From a virus: DNA of 35,582 nucleotides. Under the pieces are notes generated by a model. It had not been told where the DNA came from, did not search any database, and was given only the letters and a program-made list of their open reading frames with translations. Shown here in pieces: positions 469 through 35,582 of this stretch. The first letter of the stretch is position 1. Each line of letters opens with the position of its first letter. Made by a program: the position numbers and the translations under genes. The stretch spans positions 1 through 35,582 of IMG/VR virus record IMGVR_UViG_3300009702_000010; one strand, 5' to 3'.

Positions 469-764
469 AGCGCACCGCCTCCCCAAGCCTCGACCATGGC
501 CTGGGCGAGGCCATGCCATGACCCCGGACCAGGCATCTGGGCGCGCCATGCGGGACCTAGCCCAGCGCCGGGATGCTCGTAGCGATGAGCCATCATCTCT
601 ACCGCTGTGTCGTACAGCGGAGGATCCTCCGCCGGCTCATGTAGCGCCGCCACACCGCAAAACCCGCGAGCGAGCTCCGCTGCAACCCGAGGGAGCTCGC
701 ATCCCGAGGCCAGGAGCGCGTCTTCGACGCGCGCCACCCGATGCCGCAGCGCGTCCGTGCTCAT
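465..764 (-). CDS. hypothetical protein, 99 aa
   Basis: Start at ATG 764 (MSTDALRHRV...) overlaps the upstream stop as ATGA (761-764). No domain recognised. Confidence 0.6.
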   Translation of the reverse strand: MSTDALRHRVARVEDALLASGCELPRVAAELARGFCGVAALHEPAEDPPLYDTAVEMMAHRYEHPGAGLGPAWRAQMPGPGSWHGLAQAMVEAWGGGAL

Positions 765-997
765 CGTCTCGCCTCCGCAACGATGTGGCCGAGCTCGGGG
801 TCCGCGTCGATCCACCGCCGGATCGTCGACCAGCCGACGCCGAGGCGCCTTGCGGCGCCCCTAACATTGCCGTGCTCCGCCCGGATGGCTCGACCTACGC
901 GATTCCGCCGCTCGGGTGCCGTCGCGTAGGCCAGGCGCTGGGCCTCCTGTGATCCGCGCGCCACTAGCGGACCCTCATGACGCTGATGCGATACCAC
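761..997 (-). CDS. small DNA-binding protein with Fis-type HTH at the C-terminus
   Basis: The segment ...AIRAEHGNVRGAARRLGVGWSTIRRWI resembles the HTH_8/Fis pattern (GN..AA..LG.s..T..R). The start is uncertain: GTG 997 (first start after the upstream stop at 1005) or GTG 1054 (50-nt overlap). Confidence 0.55.
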   Translation of the reverse strand: MVSHQRHEGPLVARGSQEAQRLAYATAPERRNRVGRAIRAEHGNVRGAARRLGVGWSTIRRWIDADPELGHIVAEARR

Positions 998-1004
998 GCC
1001 CCCA

Positions 1005-1457
1005 TCAGGTGTGATCTCCGAGCACCGCGAGCGCTGCTGCGCGGAGATCTCCACTCAGGACCACACCGTTGTGTTCAGTCTCGACGATGTCGAGTCTAGT
1101 GGCGTCGCCGTATCCGTTGCCGCTGCCGTAGCCGGCTCCGTAGCCGTAGCCGTAGCCGGCTCCGAAGCCGTAGCCGTAGCCGTAGCCGTAGCCGTCGCCG
1201 CTGCCGTCGCCTTCGCCGAAGCCGTCGCCGCTGCCGTCGCCTTCGCCGGAGCCTTCGCCGCTGCCTTCGCCGGAGCCGCTGCCGCTGCCGCTGCCGCTGC
1301 CGAAGCCGCTGCTGCTGCCGGCAGCGGCATCTCGGAGCCAGCTCCGCCACTCTGCCATGGCGGCTGCGTAGGTGGAGTGATCCAGCGGGCGCCCGTGCGC
1401 CCACTGGATCGCATCGGTGCAGGCGCCGCACAGCGCCAGGAGCCATGTCAGCTCCAT
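1005..1457 (-). CDS. low-complexity protein with 34 consecutive Gly-X dipeptides, 150 aa
   Basis: ATG 1457 has GGGAGGA 6 nt upstream. Ordinary N-terminal (MELTWLLALCGACTDAIQWAHG...) and C-terminal sequences flank the repeat. Several other frames are open over the repeat (1055..1414 and 1096..1464 on minus, 1011..1835 on plus). This one is chosen for its start context and non-repeat ends. Confidence 0.7.
   Translation of the reverse strand: MELTWLLALCGACTDAIQWAHGRPLDHSTYAAAMAEWRSWLRDAAAGSSSGFGSGSGSGSGSGEGSGEGSGEGDGSGDGFGEGDGSGDGYGYGYGYGFGAGYGYGYGAGYGSGNGYGDATRLDIVETEHNGVVLSGDLRAAALAVLGDHT
1104..1307. repeat. In-frame tandem repeat tract (6-nt GTAGCC/GCTGCC-type units and a 30-nt unit) encoding (Gly-X)34
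   Basis: There are runs of gccgta and gccgct units. 1191-1218 equals 1221-1248 (28/28), giving the GEGDGSGDG(F/Y) duplication. Confidence 0.9.
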
Positions 1458-1726
1458 GGCTCATCCTCCCACGAGGCGGCGGCCTTGTCGGAGGCCTCGA
1501 ACACGCCTGTCACGTTGCGCAGGACTGCGCGCTCCACGGCAGGAGACACCCGTGATTGCGGGCCAATCGGACGCGCGGCAACGCCGAGCACACCGTGCGA
1601 TGATGCGTCCCAATATACGATCATCCGGCAATGCGTGAGGACGATGGGATCGGCTCCAGGATCCATCGTCTTGCCGACGAATACGCCACGATGGGCCGTT
1701 GTGACTACCACGTTGTGTGCCTCCAT
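1448..1726 (-). CDS. hypothetical protein, 92 aa
   Basis: ATG 1726 (MEAHNVVVTTAHRGVFVGKTMDPG...). Third codon positions are mostly G/C. The 3' end overlaps the next start by 10 nt. No domain recognised. Confidence 0.7.
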   Translation of the reverse strand: MEAHNVVVTTAHRGVFVGKTMDPGADPIVLTHCRMIVYWDASSHGVLGVAARPIGPQSRVSPAVERAVLRNVTGVFEASDKAAASWEDEPWS

Positions 1727-2544: not shown

Positions 2545-3870
2545 CTACGCCTCTGGCTCCCACAGCCTCGATCTACTGCCGCCGCTACTGCGCCGCCTAG
2601 GAGACCACCCGTTGCGCCGCAGGCACCGCGATATCCGCTGCGCGTCGCCCGGGGTCTGATGGCTGGGCTCTATCAGGAGCGCGTTGGTCGCGATCTCCGC
2701 GAGCCGTACACCCGACGGGTGGGCCTCTAGGTACTCCACGATGCGCTCGTCCCAGAGATCCCCATGCACGCGCGCCGACTGCTCAGCGACTAGCGCACCA
2801 CGCAGGGATGCGTCGGGATACCACAGGTTTCCGGCGCGGTAGAGCTCGACGGCTTCGCCCCACAGTTGGTCGCGATCGCGCCGCAGCTCATCGACGCGGA
2901 CTGTGCGCACCCGCACGGGCCACCATCGCCGGTTCTCCACGTCCAGCAGATATTCGACTTCGTTCGTCGTCGCGGCGAACACGCAGGAGCGCGGGCGTCG
3001 CACGAAATTCCTCGTGTACGGGGCGCGATAGACATCTTCGTTCCGCGTGAAAAAGGACTTGTTCCGCTCGATGTCGCTCCGCCGCGTCGCGCCGAGCTCG
3101 TCGTTCATGGCGCACCAGATCCCACCGAGTGCGTGCATCGCATCTTTGTCGCGCAGGTCCGGCAGCTCCGGCAGATACCAGGGCGAAAACAACGCCTCGA
3201 TGCCCTGGTTCTTGCCCGCGCCCTGCGCCCCCTCGAGCACAAGCACATGGTCGACCTTGCAACCGGGAGTGAGGGCGCGAGCCACTGCCGAAATGAGCCA
3301 CCACCGACCCACATTGGCCAGGTAGACACCCTGCACCGGCGTGCGCGATTCCGCGTCGAAATAGTGCTGTAGCCAGCCCTCGACGCGCGGCACTCCATCC
3401 CACTGTACCGAGCAGGCGTCGAGGTAGTCGCGTAGCGGGTGCACTGGGTTAGCGCGCGCCGCATAATCGAGGGCTGCGCGAACGGCTTCCGGTCCCCAGC
3501 TCTGCGACCATGCACGCCGCAGCCACAGGCCCGCGTAGACCAGATGCTTGTCGCAGAGCTCTCCGGCTGGCGGCGGCGGCAGCGTCGGCCAACCATCGGG
3601 CAGGCGTGGCAGCGGCGGGAACGATCGCGCCTGGATCTCGCCAGCGAACACATCGTGCTCCAGAGCACCGGACCACGCCTGGCTCTGCGTGAGGATGAGC
3701 GCCGCGTTGCCCGGATCTTTGGTTGGGATGCCATGCTCATTGCAGGCTAGCGCGCGCGACCACTCGGGCGGCGGAGCCTCGTCGTCCCGTACTACGCGCA
3801 CCGGGCCTGGGGGCGGCGCGTCGGGAGCGTCTGAATCGTCGGGCGTGTAGTCGTCGGTCGGACCGATCAC
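2545..3870 (-). CDS. VirE-like P-loop NTPase (putative replication initiator / primase-associated helicase), 441 aa
   Basis: GTG 3870 overlaps the upstream stop as GTGA. The blocks WDGVPRVEGWL, KVDHVLVLEGAQGAGKN (Walker A), WCAMNDELG (Walker B-like), RSCVFAATTN and NRRWWPVRV fit the VirE (PF05272-type) pattern by eye. Confidence 0.88.
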   Translation of the reverse strand: MIGPTDDYTPDDSDAPDAPPPGPVRVVRDDEAPPPEWSRALACNEHGIPTKDPGNAALILTQSQAWSGALEHDVFAGEIQARSFPPLPRLPDGWPTLPPPPAGELCDKHLVYAGLWLRRAWSQSWGPEAVRAALDYAARANPVHPLRDYLDACSVQWDGVPRVEGWLQHYFDAESRTPVQGVYLANVGRWWLISAVARALTPGCKVDHVLVLEGAQGAGKNQGIEALFSPWYLPELPDLRDKDAMHALGGIWCAMNDELGATRRSDIERNKSFFTRNEDVYRAPYTRNFVRRPRSCVFAATTNEVEYLLDVENRRWWPVRVRTVRVDELRRDRDQLWGEAVELYRAGNLWYPDASLRGALVAEQSARVHGDLWDERIVEYLEAHPSGVRLAEIATNALLIEPSHQTPGDAQRISRCLRRNGWSPRRRSSGGSRSRLWEPEA

Positions 3871-7984: not shown

Positions 7985-8784
7985 CAGAACTCTCCCTCCG
8001 GGTCTACGCTCTCTCCCATGCCCGCCGCCCACGGAGGCAGTTCCCACTCGACCAGATCCGGCGCCATGCCGGGCCAGCGTCCCACGGTCATGCAGTCGCG
8101 GTAGGTGCGGAATGCCCGGGTCCACAGCGCGCGCCCTGCTGCCAGCATCGCCTCGCTGACCGGGCCGGCTACCACGTCGTGCGCATCACCCGACTGCACG
8201 AATACGAGCATGGGCGCCTCCGTTACGGCGAGGCCCGCCGCTATCGCTCCGTCGTGATACCATGCGAGCTGTCCCGCATAGAGGTAGCTCGCCATGTCGC
8301 GCCGCATGCCATCGACATCACTCCGCCGCGTGGATTTGAGGTCGCCGATCCGGTCCGCCATGAGCAGGTCGAGCCGCGCCTTGCACGCGATGCCGTCGAT
8401 CTCCCACTGGATGGTCCGCTCCCTGTCTGCCGCCTCGATGAGCGGCCACACAACGTGCGCACAGAGGCTCTCCGCGCACTCGATCGCCGTCTGGTAGTCG
8501 GCTGCCGGAATGACCACGCGGTCCGCGTTGTCCGCGATCCACGCCGCTCGCGCCGCCTTGGCCGCCTTGGTTCGGCCGTCGCCGAAGTCCGGTTGCGGTC
8601 GCCATTCGGCGAACCTCTCCGGCTCCAGCGCCGCGCAATGGATCGCTGTACCGAGCGAGTACGCGGGTTTTGTAGGCTCGGGATGCTGGCGGCGATGCTG
8701 GAGCAGTCTCGGGCTGGTCAATATCCATTTGAGTGTGCTCCAGTTGAGCGCTGGGATCGCTACGTATTGCTCGAACGTCATCAT
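7984..8784 (-). CDS. PD-(D/E)XK exonuclease (DUF3799/RecE-like), 266 aa
   Basis: GTAIHCAALEP...KARLDLL...IGDLKSTRR...YLYAGQLAWY fits a D...D-x-K nuclease core. It lies directly upstream of ERF, forming a recombination pair. Confidence 0.8.
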   Translation of the reverse strand: MMTFEQYVAIPALNWSTLKWILTSPRLLQHRRQHPEPTKPAYSLGTAIHCAALEPERFAEWRPQPDFGDGRTKAAKAARAAWIADNADRVVIPAADYQTAIECAESLCAHVVWPLIEAADRERTIQWEIDGIACKARLDLLMADRIGDLKSTRRSDVDGMRRDMASYLYAGQLAWYHDGAIAAGLAVTEAPMLVFVQSGDAHDVVAGPVSEAMLAAGRALWTRAFRTYRDCMTVGRWPGMAPDLVEWELPPWAAGMGESVDPEGEF

Positions 8785-9503
8785 TTCTCCTCCGTCATCA
8801 GCGCGACCGCTCGCGCCTCGATCGTACTCTTGGCAATGGCTCCAACCCGGGCGGCATCGGGGATTGCGTCCAGGTCAATCCCGTTTGGCCCACAGACGTT
8901 GCCGCTGGCCGCCCAGACCATGGCGTCACTCGCTGTGACCGTTGTAAAGAATGCGGCGTGCAGAGCCGCGTATCTCGGCCGGGAAGCGGCGTTGGCAGAC
9001 CGCGCGACGGCTCGCGCAACCCTTGGGATGATGTCTATCGCGTCGGAATGGACACCAGCATTCTGGGCTATTCGGGCGGCCAGGAACACGGCACTCCGGG
9101 CGTCGCTCACGACGCTGCCCCACTCGCTGCGGTCCGCGTGCTCTGCGGCCCAGATCAAATGCTGCAGATCAAATCCCACACACCATGTAGCCAATGCCGC
9201 ACACTCACACGCGAGACGCACGACGCGACACAGATCCAGCGAGTAGCTAGCAACGATCGTACGGCTGCGCGCTACCAGTTGGTCGGAATGTTCCTCTTTG
9301 ATCCGTGCGAGACAAACCCGATGGATCCATGTCGAACGATTTGGCGCGTAACGCAGCGCCGCTATGAGCGTACGCGATGCGTGGAGCCCGCTCTTGCAGA
9401 TTGCGATCGGACCTTCGTGCACCAGGGTTTTGCCGATCGGTGGGATCGGTCTACCGTCTCGCAGCGTCGGTCCGGTTAGATGCCAGGCGAGTGTACCCAT
9501 CAT
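8781..9503 (-). CDS. hypothetical protein, paralog A (conserved ~130-aa N-domain, Ala-rich variable C-region), 240 aa
   Basis: Start MMGTLAWHLTGP... at 9503 overlaps the upstream stop. It is 86/131 identical (hand alignment) to 10092..10694 over the N-terminal domain, and the two share the C-terminal EARAVALMTEE. Confidence 0.75.
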   Translation of the reverse strand: MMGTLAWHLTGPTLRDGRPIPPIGKTLVHEGPIAICKSGLHASRTLIAALRYAPNRSTWIHRVCLARIKEEHSDQLVARSRTIVASYSLDLCRVVRLACECAALATWCVGFDLQHLIWAAEHADRSEWGSVVSDARSAVFLAARIAQNAGVHSDAIDIIPRVARAVARSANAASRPRYAALHAAFFTTVTASDAMVWAASGNVCGPNGIDLDAIPDAARVGAIAKSTIEARAVALMTEEK

Positions 9504-9757
9504 TTCTGCTTCCTCCAGGTGCTCGGTTCGCCTCCCAGTAGATCGCACAGCTCCAACCATGAGAATCCGCCACGCTCTGCAATACGCTCGGCTGACTGGA
9601 TGCGACCATAACGTCGCGCATACTCCTGCCAAGCACGTTCATGCTCTTCCAGGGATATCGTTCCGGGAGGTTTGCAGATCCGTCCCTGCAACGCAGGATG
9701 CCCTGGCGGCAGGCCCCAAGGGCCATCGCCCTGGACAACGATACGCCTCTTCGACAT
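9500..9757 (-). CDS. hypothetical protein, 85 aa
   Basis: Start at ATG 9757 (MSKRRIVVQG...) shares one nt with the upstream TGA. Contains the block QSAERIAERGGFSWLEL. No domain recognised. Confidence 0.6.
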   Translation of the reverse strand: MSKRRIVVQGDGPWGLPPGHPALQGRICKPPGTISLEEHERAWQEYARRYGRIQSAERIAERGGFSWLELCDLLGGEPSTWRKQK

Positions 9758-19907: not shown

Positions 19908-20330
19908 GTGGCAGCGGTGAAGGTTCCGGCGCCGCGGTTCAGGCAGATTGCCGGAACGGACTATCACCTGGACTCTGTGCAGCGGTCGGCGCGGTCAGCG
20001 ATCCAAGCCGTCAACGCCAAGGCAGCCGCGGACAAGGCCGCTACAGATGCGGCGGTTGCGGCTGCCACGACTAGCACCACGGCAGTGAAGTCTACCCTGG
20101 ACGCGCTTCCCGACAGTGCGGGCGAGACGCATACCGTGACGTTCAAGGCGGACGTGGAGCAGACCGTGGCACATGCGCTGGGCAGAGACTTCAGGGGCTG
20201 GCGCGTCACTCGCGACTACGGCGACAACCCATCCCAGCTCGTCGAGGTGACGACGTGGCCCGGGCACCGCAAGAAGGAGATCACCCTCAAGTCGGCAACG
20301 GATTGCACAGTCGATATCCTGGTGTACTGA
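19908..20330 (+). CDS. virion-associated hypothetical protein, 140 aa
   Basis: GTG 19908 lies 2 nt after the upstream TAG. The stop overlaps the next start. Confidence 0.55.
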   Translation: MAAVKVPAPRFRQIAGTDYHLDSVQRSARSAIQAVNAKAAADKAATDAAVAAATTSTTAVKSTLDALPDSAGETHTVTFKADVEQTVAHALGRDFRGWRVTRDYGDNPSQLVEVTTWPGHRKKEITLKSATDCTVDILVY

Positions 20331-23300
20331 TGCCTCTGCAGAAACAGATTGTCGACTACCCGTTCTTGACCGGCATCGTGGAGAGCACGGACGGCAAGAT
20401 GCTGGACCGCTCGGGTCTTGCGCGCGTCGTGAATGGACAGTTTTCCAAGACGGCCACCATCGACAAGCGGACGGGATTCGTCGATTTCTACGGCGACATC
20501 GGGGTCACGCCGCTGAAGCTCATTGGTCACGATGGCCAACTCGACGCTATCGTGAGCACTGCGCCCGCATACAGTGATGTCCGATGGTTCGGTGCGGTCA
20601 ACCCACAGGACAACAAATACGGCAGCGCTGGGAGCGTGGTACCGTCATCGATCTTGGAGCGCGCGCCGATCGCTCGTGAGTACGTCGAGACGCAGCGCGG
20701 AGATATGGGCTTCTGCCAAGGATACAATGTCTACGCATTCGAGTACAAGAGCCTTGGGAAGGTCTACGTCAAGATCCAGGACGCCAAGTCGCGCACTGTC
20801 GTCTACACGACAGACCAGATAGGGATCTCCCCGCTCGTGGCGGTATCGGGCAGTCATGTCATGGTCGCGTGGGCGAACAGTAGCAACATCAATGCGCTCA
20901 TCATTGCGGTGTCGGGCGGTGTGGTGACGGTGGGCTCGGTCCTGACACTCGTGACGGATCGCAGCGACTATTACTCCGACATGCACGCGCTTTGCCCCAT
21001 GGCGGCGAAGGCGCCAGCTACAGACAGCTGGTGTCTGCACTATATCCAGGCGGAGACGTACTACGGGATCTCGCGTGACATCCTGGATGACGGCAGCAGC
21101 ACGTCGCTTGCCTCTACGGGTGAGGGCGCAGTCCAGGTCGGGTGTTACGAGGAGCCACAAAGTTTAGATATATATCTAACCTACGTCTCCAAGATCGGGC
21201 ATGACCTCAAGTACGCGGCATACGGGTCAGGTACCCACACGCTTTACAAAGCGTGGACGGTGATAGCTAGCAATATCTGGACAGATTGGGCGAGCAACAA
21301 CTACGGGTGTCCAATTGGCATGGGTCCCTACACGGACCCGGCAACCGGCGTTCCGATGGTCACCGTCTCGTGGACCGATTTCTACCATGACAACCTACCT
21401 CCACCGGCGTGGATACCCGGAGCGCCGCCTGTGGGTTGGGAGGATACCGCCGACGACAACTACATGGACGGTGATTGGAGCGTCCACTATTCATCGACGG
21501 ACCAGCAGGCGACCCAGCGACCTCGCGCGCACACGCAGTGGGCGAAGGTAGACCTCACCGGGTCGACCACGCTCCCACACAATGCGTTTCGCCTCGGTGC
21601 GGTGTCTCATCCATTCGTATACCGCGGCGTGGTCTACCAGTGGTGTGTGGATGTCCACACATCGGCTTACGTGCTCTACTCGGTGACCAACGCCATCGCG
21701 GACTGCACCGCTGCATACCTGGCGGCCCCGTATCGCGATCCGACATGGTATACGTGGTCGCATCTCCAGCTAGCGCATGTCAGCGACGACGGAACGACCG
21801 GGTTCCACACAGCGCTGCAGGTCAAAACCGTCAACGACGAAGGCATCTTCAAATCTGCCTGGAGTCTGGACAGGCTGTCTCTCACGTTCGACGACCCGCA
21901 CGTCTGGCACACGGCCGAGCTGGGAGATAGCCTCTATCTGGCGAGCTCGGCACTCCTCGTCGGCAACGGCGAGGGCATGATCGAACACGGGGCGATGCAA
22001 GCGCCCTATATCCACGCCATCATGGATCAACCCACGTATCCAGTGGGGTCGCTATCCTTCCAGGGGGCAACTGGAGGAGACTTCTACTACGGGGACAATT
22101 TCGTCCTCGACGATGGCGTGAACCCGCCAGTGACGTTCGTCTTCGACCCGGCTGCATTAGGTAACCTGATCATGGGCGCCGGAAACGCTTATGCGGTCAA
22201 TAGCGCGGGCCTCTTCGAGCCCGTGTCGATCACTAGCCCGAAGGTAGCCAACAGTGGCGCAGCGTGGGACACTGCTACCTACTCTGCGGGTCTTGCATTC
22301 CAACAACGCCGCGACGCGCAGTTTACTCGCGCCATCAATGTGACTACGCATACGTCGGCGTTGCCAATGGCGACCTTCGTAAGCGAGCTGAATGCGTATA
22401 GCCAGGCGCATCAGATACGAGTCACTGCATCCTCGGTGCTGATCGACAATACCTATCGACTAAAACTAACGTCGCAATGGGGACAGCTCAAGGTATGGGC
22501 AGACAATGGGAACAGCCTCAATAACATGTTGGGGTGGACGACAATCGACCCCAATTATACCGGTTATGACAGCGGGATGGCAGATGTGGCAATCGGTGCG
22601 CCGCTGGATCCGGACGTCTATCGCGTCATTGGATATCGGGATGGCGTCAGCACAGTCAACTATTTGGCCTTTGACCCGGCGTCTACAGACGTGGAGATGC
22701 GCGACTTCATCATTGATGCCGTCAACGCAGCTCACGATGCTGGCGTGCTGAACATCAAGGCAACTGCGGGCACAGGCGCAGGCGCCAACTATACGGTGAC
22801 GCTAACCAACACCAAGACGGGCGCCGCTGGCGAAACAAGCATTACGAAAGACTTCTTCATGGACGGCATGGCTGGTGCGCCGGACATGATAGCCACCGCA
22901 TTTACCGGCAGCCATGCGCTCGCTGACAGCATCGGCGGTGGGACCTACAGTTACGTTGCCTGTTACGAGTACGTCGACACGCAAGGAGCACGATACCGGT
23001 CGCTATTGTCCGACCCGTTCACGATCGACCTCATTAGCTATGGCGACAGCGGTTGCCAGGTCTCGCTCAAACTCGCGCACAACAACACGACGCGACAGTC
23101 AGATAACATTGATGCAACGACGATGCAGATCGCCGTGTATCGCACGAAGAAGAACGGCTCCGTGTTCTATCGGCTGCCGTTCGCGGCGTCGCAGGTTCTG
23201 AACGACCCAAACGCGACAGACTTCTTGGCGGTGACGGATGTGTATGGGGACTCCCAGCTAGACGGCCAAGAGACGCTCTACACGCAGGTCGACACCGGAG

Positions 23301-24355
23301 AGATCGAAAACCACCACCTCTATGGCGGTGCCCAGTTCCTGGTAGCTCATGGCGACAGGTTGTTTGCAGCGGGCGGTGAGAACCGTACTGTCGTGAGCTA
23401 CACGAAAAAATTAGTGCCTGGTCAGGCCATCGCCTGGAACCCGGCACTTTTCATCGACGTTGGCAAGACGATTACCGGGCTTGCGTCGCTCGACGACATG
23501 CTGCTGGTCTTCACGGCCGATAGCATCATCGGTGTCTACGGAGAGGGGCCAGATAACGCCGGAGGCTCAGGCACATTCGAGTATGCGCCGATCGCTACGG
23601 ACAGCGGGTGCATCGACGCAAACTCGATCTTGCAGTTCTCCGCTGGCGTCGTCTATCTGTCGAGACGCGGCCTGTACCTCGTGGACAGATCACGGCAGAC
23701 AACATTCTTCGGTCAGCCTGTCGAGGATACGGTCAACGCAGCGACTCAGGTCATCTCTGCGGATGTGGTGCAGGACAGCAGCCAGCTCCGGTGGGTGCTG
23801 CGCACCGTCGATGGCGATCAGGTCCTGGTCTACGACTACGCAACGATGCAGTGGAGCACATGGACGTTGGCCATGTACTCGCCAACGAACGTCAAATCGA
23901 CAGTGACACTCGATGGCGTCTACCTGCTCTGCACCGAGGGCGGAGAGCGGATCTTCTCCCAGTTAGACAACCAGTATCTGGACAACGGCAACTGGTACGG
24001 CCTGACGGTCGAGACCGCTTGGATCAACTTCGCCGGGGTCCAGGGCTTCAAGCGCTTGCGGCGCTGGGAATTGTTGGGCGACCTAGGCGGCCCACATGGA
24101 CTGCTCGTGGACATCTACCGCGACTACACACTGACCAAGAATGAGCAGGTCTCGCTGCCCGAGTCTACGCTGGTCACCCTGGACCCCTACCAGATCCGCC
24201 GTCATGTGGCGCACCAGCAATCAGATGCATGGAAATTCGTCTTCACGGAACAGGCGCCAGCGTCTCCGGCCAACCTATCGCTGCGATCTTTGACGGCCTT
24301 GTCGTTCGAGGTCGGCGTGAAGGGTATACTCCAAGCCATTCCCCATACCGCGTAA
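20330..24355 (+). CDS. large tail protein, 1341 aa (putative tail hub/tubular protein)
   Basis: Start at ATG 20330 (MPLQKQIVDYPF...) shares one nt with the upstream TGA. The C-terminal third has repeated strand-like blocks (...ITGLASLDDMLLVFTADSIIGVYGEG...VVYLSRRGLYLVDRS...VLVYDYATMQWSTW...) suggestive of a beta-propeller. Confidence 0.75.
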   Translation: MPLQKQIVDYPFLTGIVESTDGKMLDRSGLARVVNGQFSKTATIDKRTGFVDFYGDIGVTPLKLIGHDGQLDAIVSTAPAYSDVRWFGAVNPQDNKYGSAGSVVPSSILERAPIAREYVETQRGDMGFCQGYNVYAFEYKSLGKVYVKIQDAKSRTVVYTTDQIGISPLVAVSGSHVMVAWANSSNINALIIAVSGGVVTVGSVLTLVTDRSDYYSDMHALCPMAAKAPATDSWCLHYIQAETYYGISRDILDDGSSTSLASTGEGAVQVGCYEEPQSLDIYLTYVSKIGHDLKYAAYGSGTHTLYKAWTVIASNIWTDWASNNYGCPIGMGPYTDPATGVPMVTVSWTDFYHDNLPPPAWIPGAPPVGWEDTADDNYMDGDWSVHYSSTDQQATQRPRAHTQWAKVDLTGSTTLPHNAFRLGAVSHPFVYRGVVYQWCVDVHTSAYVLYSVTNAIADCTAAYLAAPYRDPTWYTWSHLQLAHVSDDGTTGFHTALQVKTVNDEGIFKSAWSLDRLSLTFDDPHVWHTAELGDSLYLASSALLVGNGEGMIEHGAMQAPYIHAIMDQPTYPVGSLSFQGATGGDFYYGDNFVLDDGVNPPVTFVFDPAALGNLIMGAGNAYAVNSAGLFEPVSITSPKVANSGAAWDTATYSAGLAFQQRRDAQFTRAINVTTHTSALPMATFVSELNAYSQAHQIRVTASSVLIDNTYRLKLTSQWGQLKVWADNGNSLNNMLGWTTIDPNYTGYDSGMADVAIGAPLDPDVYRVIGYRDGVSTVNYLAFDPASTDVEMRDFIIDAVNAAHDAGVLNIKATAGTGAGANYTVTLTNTKTGAAGETSITKDFFMDGMAGAPDMIATAFTGSHALADSIGGGTYSYVACYEYVDTQGARYRSLLSDPFTIDLISYGDSGCQVSLKLAHNNTTRQSDNIDATTMQIAVYRTKKNGSVFYRLPFAASQVLNDPNATDFLAVTDVYGDSQLDGQETLYTQVDTGEIENHHLYGGAQFLVAHGDRLFAAGGENRTVVSYTKKLVPGQAIAWNPALFIDVGKTITGLASLDDMLLVFTADSIIGVYGEGPDNAGGSGTFEYAPIATDSGCIDANSILQFSAGVVYLSRRGLYLVDRSRQTTFFGQPVEDTVNAATQVISADVVQDSSQLRWVLRTVDGDQVLVYDYATMQWSTWTLAMYSPTNVKSTVTLDGVYLLCTEGGERIFSQLDNQYLDNGNWYGLTVETAWINFAGVQGFKRLRRWELLGDLGGPHGLLVDIYRDYTLTKNEQVSLPESTLVTLDPYQIRRHVAHQQSDAWKFVFTEQAPASPANLSLRSLTALSFEVGVKGILQAIPHTA

Positions 24356-24365
24356 GGACAGGGCC

Positions 24366-25378
24366 ATGTCATTTTGGGATAGTCTGACCGGGCAGAATCA
24401 CTACAACATCCAATCGCCGACATTGGCAAAGCCAAGCTCTGACATCGCCACCGCTGGCAATTCCAGAGCACAGCAGCAGTCGCTATCGGATGCTCTGCGC
24501 GCGGCATCACGTGGGCAGGGTCCTAGCGTTGCCGACGAGGAGCTCCGACGCGCGCAGCAGCAGGCCATGATGAACGCCAAGAGCATGGCAGCCGGCGCAT
24601 CGGGATCCACAGCAGGGTTGGCGCAGCGCAACGCCATGTTTGCCGGAGCCCAATCGGCACAGGCAGCAGGCTCCGCTGCCGCGTTGGCGCGCGCGCAGAA
24701 GCGCAGAAGGCACAGGCGCTGCTAGCACAGAATCTCCAGTCCCAGCGTGCGGGAGATATCCAGGGCCGGCAGATGACGGACCAAGAGAACCAGGCGTTGA
24801 TGAACGCACAACTCCAGACAGACAGACTCCGCTACCAGCAGAGCGCAGCTAACAGCGCCGGTACGCAGAACTTCTACGGCGGGCTCATGGCGGCAGGCGG
24901 AACCATGCTTACCATGAGCGACATCCGCAGCAAGGAGGACATCCAGTCATCGGATCGTGAGCTCAAGGACAAGCTCGACGCAGCCAGCCAGCGCACAATT
25001 GCTGGACTGCGATCCGAAGCTGCTCTGCCCAATGAGCCTGCGCACACTGCACGCTTCGACACCATGAGCCCGGATGAGAGCCGGAGAGCTCTGGATCCGC
25101 TAGATGCGTATACCTACCGCTATCGGGAGCCGGACGCGGCCCGGATGGCAGAGCGATTCCCGCCGGAGGGCCAGGTCGAGGCGTTTGCGGACTACCGCAG
25201 CCCGCGCACCGGCGTCATGGCGCAGGACCTCGAGCAATCCCCCGAGGGACGCCAGGTGGTCGTCGACACACCGCACGGCAAGGGCCTGGACCAGGAGCGG
25301 GCGCTATCGTTCGCGTTGGCCTCGAATGCAGCGCTGAACAAGCGGATCGAGGCGCTGGAGAACAAGCAGGGGCGCTGA
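24366..25378 (+). pseudogene. tail fibre/spike-like gene with C-terminal S74-type intramolecular chaperone domain, split by an 8-bp tandem duplication
   Basis: Track ORFs 24366..24725 (frame 0) and 24773..25378 (frame 2) are parts of one gene. GCGCAGAA is duplicated at 24693-24700 and 24701-24708. Removing one copy leaves 1005 nt, 335 codons, reading ...ALARAQKAQALLAQNLQ... The S74 signature is TMSDIRSKEDI ... GVMAQDLEQ ... NKRIEALENK. Confidence 0.7.
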
Positions 25379-34834: not shown

Positions 34835-35582
34835 ATGGACGCCGCGAATGACATTAGCCTTGAGCGATTCGACTGCGTGGCTGGAGAGCTAGCACATTAC
34901 CAGCGGGTTCGTCGTGTGCTCCATTCCGCGCAGCACCCAGCATTTCTCGGCCCAGAGCAGATGGAGCGTTGCCTGCGCCATGATGGGCATGTGTGGCTAT
35001 ACATGCATGCTGGAGAGGACATAGCGACGCTATGGACGGAGCCGCAGAAGGGATTCCCAAACGATCAGCACGGGTTTGTGCTCTCGGTAATAAAGGCCTG
35101 GAAGGGCCGTGGAATAGCGCGACGCATCCTGGTGGAGGACGGTCCGCGCTTTGGGCGAGCGATCGACGGAGTGCTGGCCTGGTTTGCGGATTGCGGTTAC
35201 CAGATTTGCGGCGAGGGAGTCTGGAAGCACAAGCGCCACGTCGTCTATCCGGTATCCAGGGATCCTCGCGACTGGCCCGATCCAGCATCTGAAGCCGGAA
35301 AGCAGGCTGCCAAAGCGCTGGCTGCATCGCGCGAGAATTTCGCAGACGAGCGCAACGCGAAGGCCACGAAACAGCAAGCGCCGGACGCAGCTCCAGAGCC
35401 ATTCGACATGGGCGCAGCTAAACCCTTTGTGGCGCTCGAGGCCGATTCACGAGCTGCACAGCTACGTAACCAGCTGGCGCTGCTGGACACGATGCTTCAG
35501 GCTGCGCTGCGTGACGGCAAATATACTGACGCCCTGAAGATCCAGACGGAAGCGGCTACGATCCTAAGGCATCTAGTATCTG
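34835..35582 (+). CDS. GNAT-like acetyltransferase domain protein with helical C-terminal extension (5' part; continues across the circle junction to nt 143; 255 aa in total)
   Basis: ATG 34835 has GGAGG 4 nt upstream. I translated by hand to the last base of the window and found no stop. ...FVLSVIKAWKGRGIARRILVEDG...LAWFADCGYQICGEG carries the R/Q-x-x-G-x-G/A acetyl-CoA motif. Confidence 0.72.
   Translation, partial: MDAANDISLERFDCVAGELAHYQRVRRVLHSAQHPAFLGPEQMERCLRHDGHVWLYMHAGEDIATLWTEPQKGFPNDQHGFVLSVIKAWKGRGIARRILVEDGPRFGRAIDGVLAWFADCGYQICGEGVWKHKRHVVYPVSRDPRDWPDPASEAGKQAAKALAASRENFADERNAKATKQQAPDAAPEPFDMGAAKPFVALEADSRAAQLRNQLALLDTMLQAALRDGKYTDALKIQTEAATILRHLVS
35460..35582. repeat. Terminal direct repeat copy 2 (identical to 1..123)
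   Basis: See copy 1. Confidence 0.95.

Follow-up and report, generated by a model that had tools for sequence, protein, structure and literature searches.

A widespread two-gene phage cassette in which a DUF6948 protein, predicted to be Sm-like, is almost always followed by a glycine-dipeptide repeat protein

Introduction

Proteins of the Sm fold usually bind RNA, and some of them carry disordered, glycine-rich tails. In the bacterial Sm protein Hfq, the acidic C-terminal tail of the Escherichia coli protein mimics nucleic acid, competes for the Sm core and autoregulates the ring (PMC5606850), and in Acinetobacter baumannii the tail is composed of GGFGGQ repeats that are required for function and whose number matters (PMC11617691). 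The eukaryotic proteins SmD1, SmD3, SmB and LSm4 carry C-terminal Arg-Gly dipeptide repeats that serve as docking tails; a literature search on SmD1/SmD3 RG repeats and the Tudor domain returned PMC3848767. Glycine-rich repeats are also found outside the Sm family. The low-complexity domains of FUS, EWS and TAF15 contain multiple [G/S]Y[G/S] motifs, and tyrosine is a main driver of FUS-type phase separation (PMC10888811). The heavy chain of Bombyx mori fibroin, (GAGAGS/GAGAGY)n, places Gly at every second residue and packs into β-sheet crystallites, sulfur globule proteins (Pfam SGP, PF17228) are rich in Gly and Tyr, and the C9orf72 hexanucleotide repeat gives rise to poly-GA, -GP and -GR through repeat-associated translation.

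Here we examine a strictly alternating Gly-X tract encoded by a phage gene, first noticed from sequence alone in an earlier note on a 35,582-nucleotide stretch of viral DNA (IMG/VR record IMGVR_UViG_3300009702_000010, positions 1 to 35,582; hereafter the window). We find that the tract is the variable half of a two-gene cassette for which literature searches on DUF6948, on ‘fibroin heavy chain-like' and sulfur globule proteins in phages, and on the repeat strings returned no description.

Results

The Gly-X tract and its gene

The features of the locus are as follows.
1005..1457 (-): gene for the 150-aa Gly-X repeat protein, second gene of the cassette
1308..1457 (-): N-terminal small helical domain, residues 1-50, with the motif L-x3-G-A-C...W-x2-W-L
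1104..1307 (-): (Gly-X)34 low-complexity tract, residues 51-118, predicted disordered, acidic and aromatic, with no Lys or Arg
1190..1248 (strand not assigned): 30-nt tandem duplication inside the tract
1005..1103 (-): C-terminal 32 residues plus the stop codon, overlapping ORF 761..1054 by 50 nt
1448..1726 (-): partner gene, encoding a 92-aa DUF6948 (PF22253) protein with a predicted Sm/LSm-like small β-barrel
1448..1470 (-): translational-coupling junction between the two genes

The observation made in the earlier note is confirmed. Residues 51-118 of the product read GFGSGSGSGSGSGEGSGEGSGEGDGSGDGFGEGDGSGDGYGYGYGYGFGAGYGYGYGAGYGSGNGYGD, which is 34 uninterrupted Gly-X units, and the X residues are S10, Y9, D5, E4, F3, A2 and N1, matching the 9 Tyr and 3 Phe counted previously. 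The described order of Ser first, acidic residues in the middle and Tyr last is real in this protein, with a rank correlation with position of +0.38 for Y/F and -0.49 for S. Tandem Repeats Finder reports arrays of period 6, 12, 18, 24 and 30 over 1103..1308, and the duplication noted as 1191-1218 = 1221-1248 is exact, with identity extending to 29 nt (1190-1218 = 1220-1248), a footprint of unit duplication. Given that Gly makes up 8.6% of residues in this genome, 34 alternating Gly at a given site has a P of about 1e-36, and no other G-X run of 6 or more units exists in any frame of the window. GC3 is 0.82 in the Gly-X frame. An independent ENA contig, 99.87% identical to the window, carries the identical 453-nt ORF.

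The gene start overlaps the stop of the upstream gene by 10 nt (ATGGAGCTGA): GGGAGGA lies at 1470-1464, 6 nt upstream of the ATG at 1457-1455, and the TGA of the DUF6948 gene is at 1450-1448. A promoter and terminator scan found no such site nearby, so the gene does sit inside the operon, as the earlier note had proposed.

AlphaFold predicts the tract as disordered (pLDDT 25-30) and the N-terminal region as four short helices (pLDDT 65-80), with a further helix at residues 138-149 (pLDDT of about 50). The net charge per residue of the tract is -0.13, its aromatic fraction is 0.18 and it contains 12 [GS][YF][GS] motifs. The C-terminal residues (ATRLDIVETEHNGVVLSGDLRAAALAVLGDHT) are conserved in close homologues, aligning with those we labelled P0001, P0002, P0004, P0009 and L020. 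The N-terminal flank was described as ordinary in the earlier note, but it is a rare domain found only together with such tracts. L7, G11, A12, C13 and W40 are invariant in an alignment of 15 sequences, and an exhaustive phmmer search of 1.84 billion representative proteins gave 18 hits, of which 16 are true and all followed by a G/Y-rich tract, the remaining two (P0247 and P0249) being unrelated repetitive proteins. This ‘GAC' domain has no Pfam match. Homologues of the repeat protein recovered by protein search (our labels) were P0001-P0010, P0020, P0033, P0051 and P0082.

A DUF6948 gene lies upstream of the repeat gene

The earlier note did not consider the upstream neighbour. The gene at 1448..1726 matches PF22253 (E = 1.9e-16), and its AlphaFold model is confident (pLDDT 93.8, pTM 0.86), with five strands. 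All 50 best PDB matches found by Foldseek are Sm/LSm-type or Sm-derived chains (TM 0.43-0.59, the top hits about 0.55-0.59; E from about 5e-3), and the top BFVD hits are DUF6948 and Sm-like phage proteins. The resemblance to the Sm barrel rests on this prediction only: no LSM or Hfq Pfam hit was obtained, and the DUF6948 profile gave no PDB sequence hit even at E up to 10.

To ask whether the two genes are associated generally, we examined DUF6948 loci with at least 150 nt of downstream sequence. Of 102 such loci, 99 carry a tract of 8 or more units within 1200 nt on the same strand. Strict runs of 8 or more occur in 96 of 102 loci downstream, in 0 of 110 upstream and in 2 of 77 further downstream. 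All three apparent exceptions still carry repeat sequence: a 6-unit tract cut by the contig end, a 7-unit degenerate and frameshifted tract, and a tract displaced by an inserted HNH gene. In the reverse direction, of 93 (GGCKMY)x10 tracts in viral contigs with upstream sequence, 79 have DUF6948 upstream and 9 more have a divergent DUF6948-like gene, that is, about 88 of 93; hhalign between the two sets gives 70% probability and E = 4e-5. Six Gly-X proteins with unrelated flanks, taken from the protein search, all sit directly downstream of a DUF6948 or DUF6948-like gene. The Gly-X ORF can start within 20 nt of the DUF6948 stop in 114 of 124 related loci (-4 nt in 33, -10 in 32, -13 in 17 and -1 in 10), so that the spacing in the window is one of the two commonest.

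We define the cassette by a gene directly downstream of, and on the same strand as, a PF22253 gene, by a start codon that overlaps or lies within 20 nt of the DUF6948 stop, and by an uninterrupted run of at least 8 G-X units with X mainly Tyr, Ser or Asp and no Lys or Arg. The window locus has all of these features, although its tract is atypical for the family in having Glu and Phe and in coding Ser mainly by AGC.

The tract is the constant part of the second gene

Among 103 complete ORFs, 53 have a short N-flank and a long C-domain, 25 have a long N-domain and a short C-flank, 17 are tract only and 5 are of the window type. The domains flanking the tract differ or are absent, so the tract is the constant part. 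Cultured-phage examples that are almost only tract are Ralstonia NK-7, Pectobacterium Koroua and Iodobacter phiPLPE. Across the family X is Y 0.42, S 0.28 and D 0.25, together 95%, Ala is 1%, and K/R are 6 of 6985 residues.

The Gly-X frame is the translated one. Homologues keep the N- and C-terminal flanks in that frame, and in 53 of 103 related genes a conserved C-terminal domain of about 115 aa lies downstream of the tract in the same frame. The G-[Y/S/D] pattern also survives different codon choices (GGC or GGG; TAC or TAT; TCC, TCT or AGC).

Length polymorphism in related genomes had been put forward as a test of in-frame expansion and contraction, and it was found. Eight near-identical copies in one MAG differ only by in-frame 12- and 48-nt indels in the tract, family members carry 9 to 46 or more units, and overall the length varies from 5 to 80 units. 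By contrast, the graded Ser-acidic-Tyr order is peculiar to this phage: across 95 tracts the Tyr fraction is 0.435, 0.442 and 0.423 by thirds, and we rejected a conserved compositional gradient.

Searches beyond these loci were largely negative. Megablast of 8 kb of the window, and tblastn of the repeat protein and of the window's DUF6948, against 50,697 phage records gave no match, nor did a second DUF6948 query (P0141); only the gut-phage-type DUF6948 query found cultured phages. A first scan of genome contigs with a 3-sequence profile found nothing. Pfam and PHROGs hits to the repeat protein (CFAP143, TrAA12, keratin, SGP and phrog_18306) are low-complexity matches below their cut-offs and were discarded, and Pfam on the isolated flanking domains gave only a weak DUF7666 hint (E = 0.17). 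PADLOC gave no hit for either protein, Rfam and tRNA scans of the window found nothing, and a blastn search of E. coli genomes with the Koroua cassette gave no match.

Comparison with described repeat proteins

As in Hfq, an Sm-type barrel (here predicted) is combined with a disordered, repetitive, Gly-rich sequence carrying aromatic and acidic residues. Here, however, the repeat is on a separate, translationally coupled polypeptide and alternates strictly as G-X with Tyr, Ser and Asp, and DUF6948 has no detectable sequence similarity to Hfq or LSm. In the eukaryotic Sm and LSm4 tails X is Arg, which is basic and methylated, and the tail is in cis, whereas the phage tract is acidic and would act in trans; a Tudor-type reader is not known for it.

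The tract shares with FUS-type domains a composition rich in Gly, Ser and Tyr, many evenly spaced Tyr residues and predicted disorder. FUS-type domains are Gln-rich, almost uncharged and not strictly alternating, while the phage tracts are 12-13% acidic, contain no Gln and have perfect two-residue periodicity; the window tract has a single Asn. The tract does not have the composition of crystalline silk, in which X is mainly Ala or Ser: Ala fills 2 of 34 X positions here, Asp is 25% of X family-wide, and the tract, 10-160 residues long, sits in an intracellular phage protein with no homology to fibroin. Neither is it a sulfur globule protein by Pfam, as the window protein gives no PF17228 hit and relatives score 11-13 bits against a gathering threshold of 26.7, with no sulfur-oxidizer context. 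As in C9orf72, a 6-nt DNA repeat encodes strictly alternating Gly-X polypeptides, the other frames give Ala-X or Arg-X runs, and GGG-type tracts are G-quadruplex-prone; unlike those pathological products, the phage tract is a conserved part of an ordinary coding gene with mixed X residues.

Discussion

The interpretation offered in the earlier note is only partly supported. The tract, its coordinates, its composition, its reading frame and its capacity for in-frame length change all held. A silk-like β-sheet is not supported, the resemblance to phase-separating domains is real but one of sequence alone, and the tract is not unknown in phages, since such tracts follow DUF6948 (6247 protein clusters) almost without exception and one cultured phage, Ralstonia NK-7, already annotates its version as ‘fibroin heavy chain-like protein'.

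We favour, with moderate confidence, a model in which the tract is the conserved functional core of the second gene in a self-contained, translationally coupled two-gene phage accessory cassette. Our analysis establishes that the first gene encodes a small DUF6948 protein with a predicted Sm-like β-barrel; that the invariant feature of the second gene across phages is a (Gly-[Tyr/Ser/Asp])n run, usually about 30 units long and translated as such, with optional and interchangeable flanking domains, of which the window's ‘GAC' domain is one minority variant; that the run is kept at protein level, with essentially no basic or aliphatic residues; and that it evolves by duplication and loss of 6-nt units (concerted evolution), which explains the homogeneous codons, the 30-nt duplication and this phage's private Ser-acidic-Tyr blocks. 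In line with unit duplication, the tract uses GAA for all 4 Glu codons although GAA is 17% of Glu codons genome-wide, and we rejected codon optimization as the cause of codon homogeneity on this basis.

Beyond this we are inferring. The repeat would be an intrinsically disordered, polyanionic and aromatic chain made in fixed stoichiometry with the Sm-like protein and acting together with it. Most likely it binds or regulates a presumed Sm-like oligomer, either as a nucleic-acid-like competitor or as a multivalent Tyr-rich tether, which would make it an in-trans counterpart of the glycine-rich or acidic tails that tune Hfq and of the Gly-Arg tails of eukaryotic Sm proteins. The variable flanking domain would then supply the target or localization, and the scattered, moron-like positions of the cassette suggest host take-over or counter-defence rather than a core replication role. 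Ring formation and RNA binding by DUF6948, and contact between the two proteins, are likewise inferred; there is no direct evidence of physical contact, and no DUF6948-tract fusion was seen among the loci inspected, those in which the tract starts closest to DUF6948. DUF6948 is roughly neutral by a manual residue count, so simple electrostatic attraction to the acidic tract is not implied. Moreover, nucleotide-level regularity is stronger than protein-level selection alone predicts, as the unit is GGC-KMY even in phages of 39-46% GC and 99 of 104 tracts use a single Gly codon at 90% purity or more, which leaves room for an RNA or DNA role.

A bolder version of this model is not excluded, although we regard it as unlikely. 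In this view phages carry a two-component system with no described counterpart, in which an Sm-like ring protein is paired with a genetically hypervariable (Gly-[Tyr/Ser/Asp])n polypeptide acting as a protein mimic of single-stranded nucleic acid or as a Tyr-based multivalent scaffold. Loaded on the Sm-like protein and steered by interchangeable adaptor domains, it would hijack host RNA metabolism or blunt a host defence, a bacterial-virus analogue of eukaryotic Sm/LSm plus low-complexity-domain RNP assemblies, with repeat number tuned by slippage like a contingency locus.

Of the alternatives, the one that survives best, though it too is unlikely, is that the repeat protein acts by itself as a self-assembling material, which is the idea of the earlier note. 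The alternating run would form silk- or amyloid-like cross-β fibres or a Tyr-driven condensate that organizes phage replication, and DUF6948 would at most be a chaperone that keeps it soluble. Strict Gly alternation and the 12 [G/S][Y/F][G/S] motifs are consistent with this, the synthetic heptapeptide GYGYGYG is described as self-assembling into fibrillar, amyloid-type architectures (PMC8163036, PMC10510724), and the gene lies in the replication module next to a VapE primase/helicase. However, AlphaFold predicts no β structure, a quarter of X positions family-wide are Asp with no compensating positive charge, which opposes homotypic assembly, and Ala, which dominates the X positions of silk crystallites, is 1% of X. 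The cassette also sits in many different genomic neighbourhoods, not only replication modules, and this model does not explain the obligate Sm-like partner.

Somewhat more doubtful is the possibility that the functional entity is the nucleic acid, the (GGC-KMY)n hexamer array in mRNA or DNA being a binding array, for example for the Sm-like protein encoded just upstream, or a replication or recombination element, with the peptide a by-product or having a second role. The extreme codon homogeneity described above, together with Ser almost always coded by TCY and third positions that barely vary, favours this reading, as does the prediction of G-quadruplexes in GGG-type tracts. Against it, the domain that lies in frame downstream of the tract in 53 of 103 loci means that the tract must be translated as Gly-X, and the amino-acid pattern is kept across codon choices. 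The window tract RNA is no more structured than shuffles (z = +1.03), no G-quadruplex is predicted in it, only 18 of 104 tracts are GGG-type and no Rfam family matches. We rejected a G-quadruplex or structured-RNA role for the window and for GGC-type tracts.

It is very unlikely that the tract is a functionless product of replication slippage, tolerated as a flexible linker. Its 6-nt units, internal duplications, variable length and idiosyncratic block structure in this phage would fit, and Gly-rich linkers are common in phage proteins such as filamentous-phage g3p. Yet the tract is retained next to DUF6948 in about 100 distantly related phages whose DUF6948 proteins are only 35-45% identical, 17 proteins consist of little else, and composition is tightly restricted to G, Y, S and D, although aromatic residues are normally depleted in prokaryotic and phage low-complexity regions (PMC6821194).

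Equally improbable is an exported lipoprotein, for example a superinfection-exclusion factor with the repeat as periplasmic spacer. By inspection of the sequence alone, the N-terminus MELTWLLALCGAC has a hydrophobic stretch followed by a lipobox-like L-x-G-A-C, with L7, G11, A12 and C13 invariant, and several relatives have Lys or Arg before it (P0010, P0020, P0254 and P0257). The window protein and its closest relatives, however, start MEL.W, which is acidic and has no positive n-region, AlphaFold folds residues 1-48 as a four-helix unit, the same GAC motif occurs in non-hydrophobic contexts (in sequences we labelled L102 and L132), and most cassette partners have no N-terminal hydrophobic segment at all. 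Finally, an assembly artefact in the tract or its length can be all but dismissed: although 29 of 114 contigs end within 600 nt downstream of DUF6948, against 1 upstream, and the Logan contig of the same phage ends inside the tract at window position 1171, the identical ORF is present in the independent ENA assembly, the longest exact internal repeat (29 nt) is shorter than assembler k-mers, and homologous tracts occur in complete genomes of cultured phages and in multi-megabase MAG and isolate contigs.

The cassette is common. In addition to the 6247 DUF6948 clusters, the viral collection holds 342 relatives of DUF6948, there are prophage copies in Acidobacteriota, Planctomycetota, Myxococcota and Proteobacteria, and the cassette is present in cultured phages of Pectobacterium, Dickeya, Ralstonia, Vibrio and Iodobacter. 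It links a fold usually devoted to RNA handling, predicted in this case, to a Tyr-rich dipeptide repeat. If the two proteins work together as proposed, this would be a simple bacterial model for how low-complexity, Tyr-rich disordered chains cooperate with Sm-type proteins, and it could also be a new class of phage host-takeover or counter-defence factor. There is also a practical consequence, in that these tracts break short-read assemblies and are mis-annotated: a wrong frame was called in Chlorobiaceae phage CV-1-33, no gene was called in phiPLPE, and homologues carry misleading names such as ‘fibroin' and, in an nr record for one homologue (P0021), ‘Sulfur globule protein'.

A strictly alternating tract in a complete phage genome

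The run of Gly-X dipeptides described in the earlier note is confirmed. The product of the minus-strand gene is 150 aa long and its residues 51-118 are 34 uninterrupted Gly-X units, in which X is S10, Y9, D5, E4, F3, A2 and N1. With Gly accounting for 8.6% of residues in this genome, the chance of such a run at a given site is about 1e-36, and there is no second run of 6 or more units in the window. Tandem Repeats Finder reports periods of 6 to 30 nt over 1103..1308. The features of the window to which we refer are the following.

1005..1457, minus strand: gene for the repeat protein
1104..1307, minus strand: the Gly-X tract
1190-1218 and 1220-1248: 30-nt duplication within the tract, exact over 29 nt
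1448..1726, minus strand: DUF6948 gene, immediately upstream of the repeat gene
761-1054, minus strand: ORF with a helix-turn-helix match (HTH_Tnp_ISL3, E = 2.5e-6), overlapping the 3' end of the repeat gene by 50 nt
8781-9632, minus strand: gene for a 283-aa protein matching DUF7666 (E = 9.7e-7)
20255-24355: 1366-aa ORF without a Pfam match
1-123 and 35460-35582: identical ends of the window

Because the first 123 nt equal the last 123 nt, and because the related contig L016 (an independent ENA assembly) runs across the junction, the window is a circular or circularly permuted complete phage genome of about 35,459 bp (35.46 kb). A replication and recombination module lies on the minus strand (ASCH, VapE primase/helicase, VRR-NUC, a DEAD/SNF2 helicase, a methyltransferase and an exonuclease VIII-like protein), whereas P22/SU10-type structural genes lie on the plus strand. 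GC content drops to 0.57-0.61 over window 20000-24400, the region of the 1366-aa ORF, against about 0.65 elsewhere. L016 is 99.87% identical to the window and has the identical repeat ORF, although gene callers on this near-identical contig did not call the ORF at 761-1054.

The Gly-X frame is the conserved one

The earlier note had raised the possibility that an Ala-rich or an Arg-rich frame is the one translated, and we examined this by comparison with homologues. Protein searches found true homologues with a conserved N-terminal domain (invariant L7, G11, A12, C13 and W40), which also share a conserved short C-terminus in the same frame as a G-X tract of variable length. The closest viral relative with the same architecture (locus L020) has only 9 units, and others have 46 or more. 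Across loci the amino-acid pattern is kept while the codons differ (GGC or GGG, TAC or TAT, and TCC, TCT or AGC), and in 53 of 103 related genes a conserved C-terminal domain of about 115 aa lies downstream of the tract in the same frame. The Ala-rich and Arg-rich alternative frames are therefore not the conserved products. This common C-domain shows a weak DUF7666 hint (E = 0.17), and elsewhere DUF7666 is fused directly to a Gly-X tract (protein P0076).

A coupled DUF6948 gene

The gene just upstream of the repeat gene encodes a Pfam DUF6948 protein (E = 1.9e-16). Its TGA overlaps the ATG of the repeat gene by 10 nt, and GGGAGGA lies 6 nt upstream of that ATG. Every genomic context that we retrieved for Gly-X proteins, including proteins whose flanking domains are unrelated to those of the window, showed a DUF6948 gene directly upstream and overlapping; in one case the upstream gene is a divergent DUF6948-like gene.

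To examine this association systematically, we started from DUF6948 and obtained 80 viral and 34 genomic loci. Of the 102 loci with at least 150 nt of downstream sequence, 99 have a tract of 8 or more units within 1200 nt on the same strand. Counting only strict uninterrupted runs of 8 or more, the figure is 96 of 102 downstream, compared with 0 of 110 in the 1200 nt upstream and 2 of 77 further downstream. The three apparent exceptions still carry repeat sequence: one is a 6-unit tract cut off by the contig end, one is a degenerate, frameshifted copy with 7 units, and in the third (locus L085, about 2760-3300) an HNH/AP2-type endonuclease ORF is inserted between the two genes, with repeat sequence beginning at the contig end. 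The last looks like a homing-endonuclease insertion that splits the cassette.

Conversely, the DNA pattern (GGCKMY)x10 hit at least 120 viral loci. Of the 93 of these with upstream sequence, 79 have DUF6948 upstream and nine more have divergent DUF6948-like ORFs, which match the DUF6948 profile with an hhalign probability of 70% and E = 4e-5. The other 5 are mainly pure (GD)n, (GS)n or (GY)n runs in unrelated contexts. The DUF6948 family comprises 6247 protein clusters, none with a functional name. The repeat ORF can start within 20 nt of the DUF6948 stop in 114 of 124 loci, the commonest spacings being -4, -10, -13 and -1 nt.

The tract is the invariant part and its flanks vary

Among 103 complete downstream ORFs, 53 have a short N-flank and a long C-domain, 25 have a long N-domain and a short C-flank, 17 are almost only tract, and 5 resemble the window, so that the tract is the invariant part. 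The N-domain of the window is rare: an exhaustive phmmer search of 1.84 billion representatives gave 18 hits, 16 of them genuine, and all genuine hits are followed by a G/Y-rich tract, although some of these tracts are degenerate rather than strictly alternating. Tract length has a median of 33 units and ranges from 5 to 80. Over 95 tracts, X is Tyr in 42%, Ser in 28% and Asp in 25% of positions, everything else is 5% or less, and Lys/Arg are 6 of 6985 residues. There is no positional gradient, Tyr being 0.435, 0.442 and 0.423 by thirds. The Ser, acidic, then Tyr order to which the earlier note drew attention is therefore a private feature of this phage, best explained by local block duplications.

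We also looked for length polymorphism between related copies. Eight near-identical copies of a cassette-bearing element lie in one Acidobacteriota MAG (loci L102-L109; Ca. Marinacidobacterales, CBDFHB010000001/2), which suggests a multicopy mobile element or transposable prophage; two of the copies lie at contig ends. Their DUF6948 genes and N-domains are identical, but the tracts differ by 12- and 48-nt in-frame indels and one Asp/Tyr change. The interpretation in the earlier note is thus partly supported, in that the Gly-X frame and in-frame expansion and contraction hold while the graded order does not extend to the family.

Codon usage

Within a tract the Gly codon is nearly uniform, at 90% purity or more in 99 of 104 tracts. 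The dominant Gly codon is GGC in 84 tracts, GGG in 18, GGT in 2 and GGA in none, and GGC dominates even in loci of 39-46% GC. X codons are K-M-Y: TAC/TAT, TCC/TCT, GAC/GAT and GCC. This set (Tyr, Ser, Asp, Ala) is the same four-residue set used in minimalist synthetic antibody libraries; Cys and His, which are single-base neighbours of TAC, appear at X in some relatives, such as proteins P0001 and P0012. In the window the tract uses GGC 31 of 34 times, against 47% genome-wide, and GAA for all 4 Glu codons, although GAA is 17% of Glu codons genome-wide. This fits duplication and homogenisation of a few founder units, not codon optimisation. However, the universality of the GGC-KMY unit, for which we have no explanation, keeps a nucleic-acid-level role open. 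The window tract RNA is not unusually structured (z = +1.03) and no G-quadruplex is predicted; only the minority GGG-type tracts are G4-prone. In these (loci L004, L002, L011, L015 and others) the +1 frame also reads Gly-X (GTGPGP...) and the coding strand is a canonical G3N3 G-quadruplex array, with a predicted stability of -198 against -161 kcal/mol without the G4 option.

Predicted structures

AlphaFold modelling of DUF6948 with 52 sequences gives pLDDT 93.8 and pTM 0.86, with five strands and two helices. All top Foldseek hits in the PDB are Sm/LSm proteins or an Sm-like metagenomic protein (TM 0.55-0.59, E from 5e-3), and BFVD returns DUF6948 and Sm-like phage proteins. There is, however, no sequence-level link to Sm or Hfq, either in Pfam or in a PDB sequence search with the DUF6948 profile. 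In the model of the repeat protein, residues 1-48 form four short helices at pLDDT 65-80, the tract has pLDDT 25-30 and is thus predicted disordered, and there is a weak C-terminal helix.

A model for the cassette

Our analysis shows a conserved, coupled gene pair whose invariant element is the tract, which is selected at protein level, varies in length and is predicted disordered. That the two products act together is an inference. The nearest functional precedents are Sm-type proteins whose function is tuned by disordered Gly-rich or acidic tails. The acidic tip of E. coli Hfq mimics nucleic acid and competes for the Sm core (PMC5606850), and the (GGFGGQ)n repeats of Acinetobacter Hfq are needed for function (PMC11617691). 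Eukaryotic SmD1 and SmD3 carry Arg-Gly repeats; a literature search on these returned PMC3848767. We therefore favour a model in which the acidic-aromatic repeat would be an in-trans tail or ligand of the predicted Sm-like protein, with the variable flanking domains acting as adaptors. The alternatives, in decreasing order of plausibility, are self-assembly of the tract alone, a nucleic-acid-level role, a neutral linker, an exported lipoprotein and an assembly artefact.

Literature searches found no paper that mentions DUF6948 and none that describes these repeats in phages. A survey of low-complexity regions in prokaryotes and phages reports that aromatic residues are strongly depleted in them (PMC6821194), which makes a Tyr-rich repeat unusual. 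The gene in the window is one minority-architecture member of an uncharacterised cassette that matches no described system.

Occurrence in cultured phages and public assemblies

The cassette occurs in several isolates. In Ralstonia phage NK-7 the downstream CDS is annotated 'fibroin heavy chain-like protein' and is 137 aa of almost pure G-X. The cassette is also found in Pectobacterium phages Koroua, Taid, Ymer, Abuela, Amona and Pappous and in Dickeya phage Setonix; in Koroua it is inserted in the opposite orientation among tail genes, like a moron. In Iodobacter phage phiPLPE (NC_011142; locus L136, about 1190-1440) the Gly-X ORF between gp84 and gp83 is not annotated at all. In Chlorobiaceae phage CV-1-33 (MT192033; locus L137, 1774-2019) gene_25 is annotated in the wrong frame, as a (Met-Ala)n protein, while the Gly-X frame is open with 39 units. 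Vibrio phage IKEMa6-1 has the DUF6948 gene, to which our observation of this phage is limited. Prophage copies occur in isolates such as Dyella marensis CS5-B2 and Rhodopseudomonas infernalis HC1.

Among the 114 DUF6948 loci (L020-L133), public contigs end within 600 nt downstream of DUF6948 in 29, against 1 of 114 upstream, and the Logan contigs L017, L018 and L019 all stop inside the tract. These repeats systematically break short-read assemblies.
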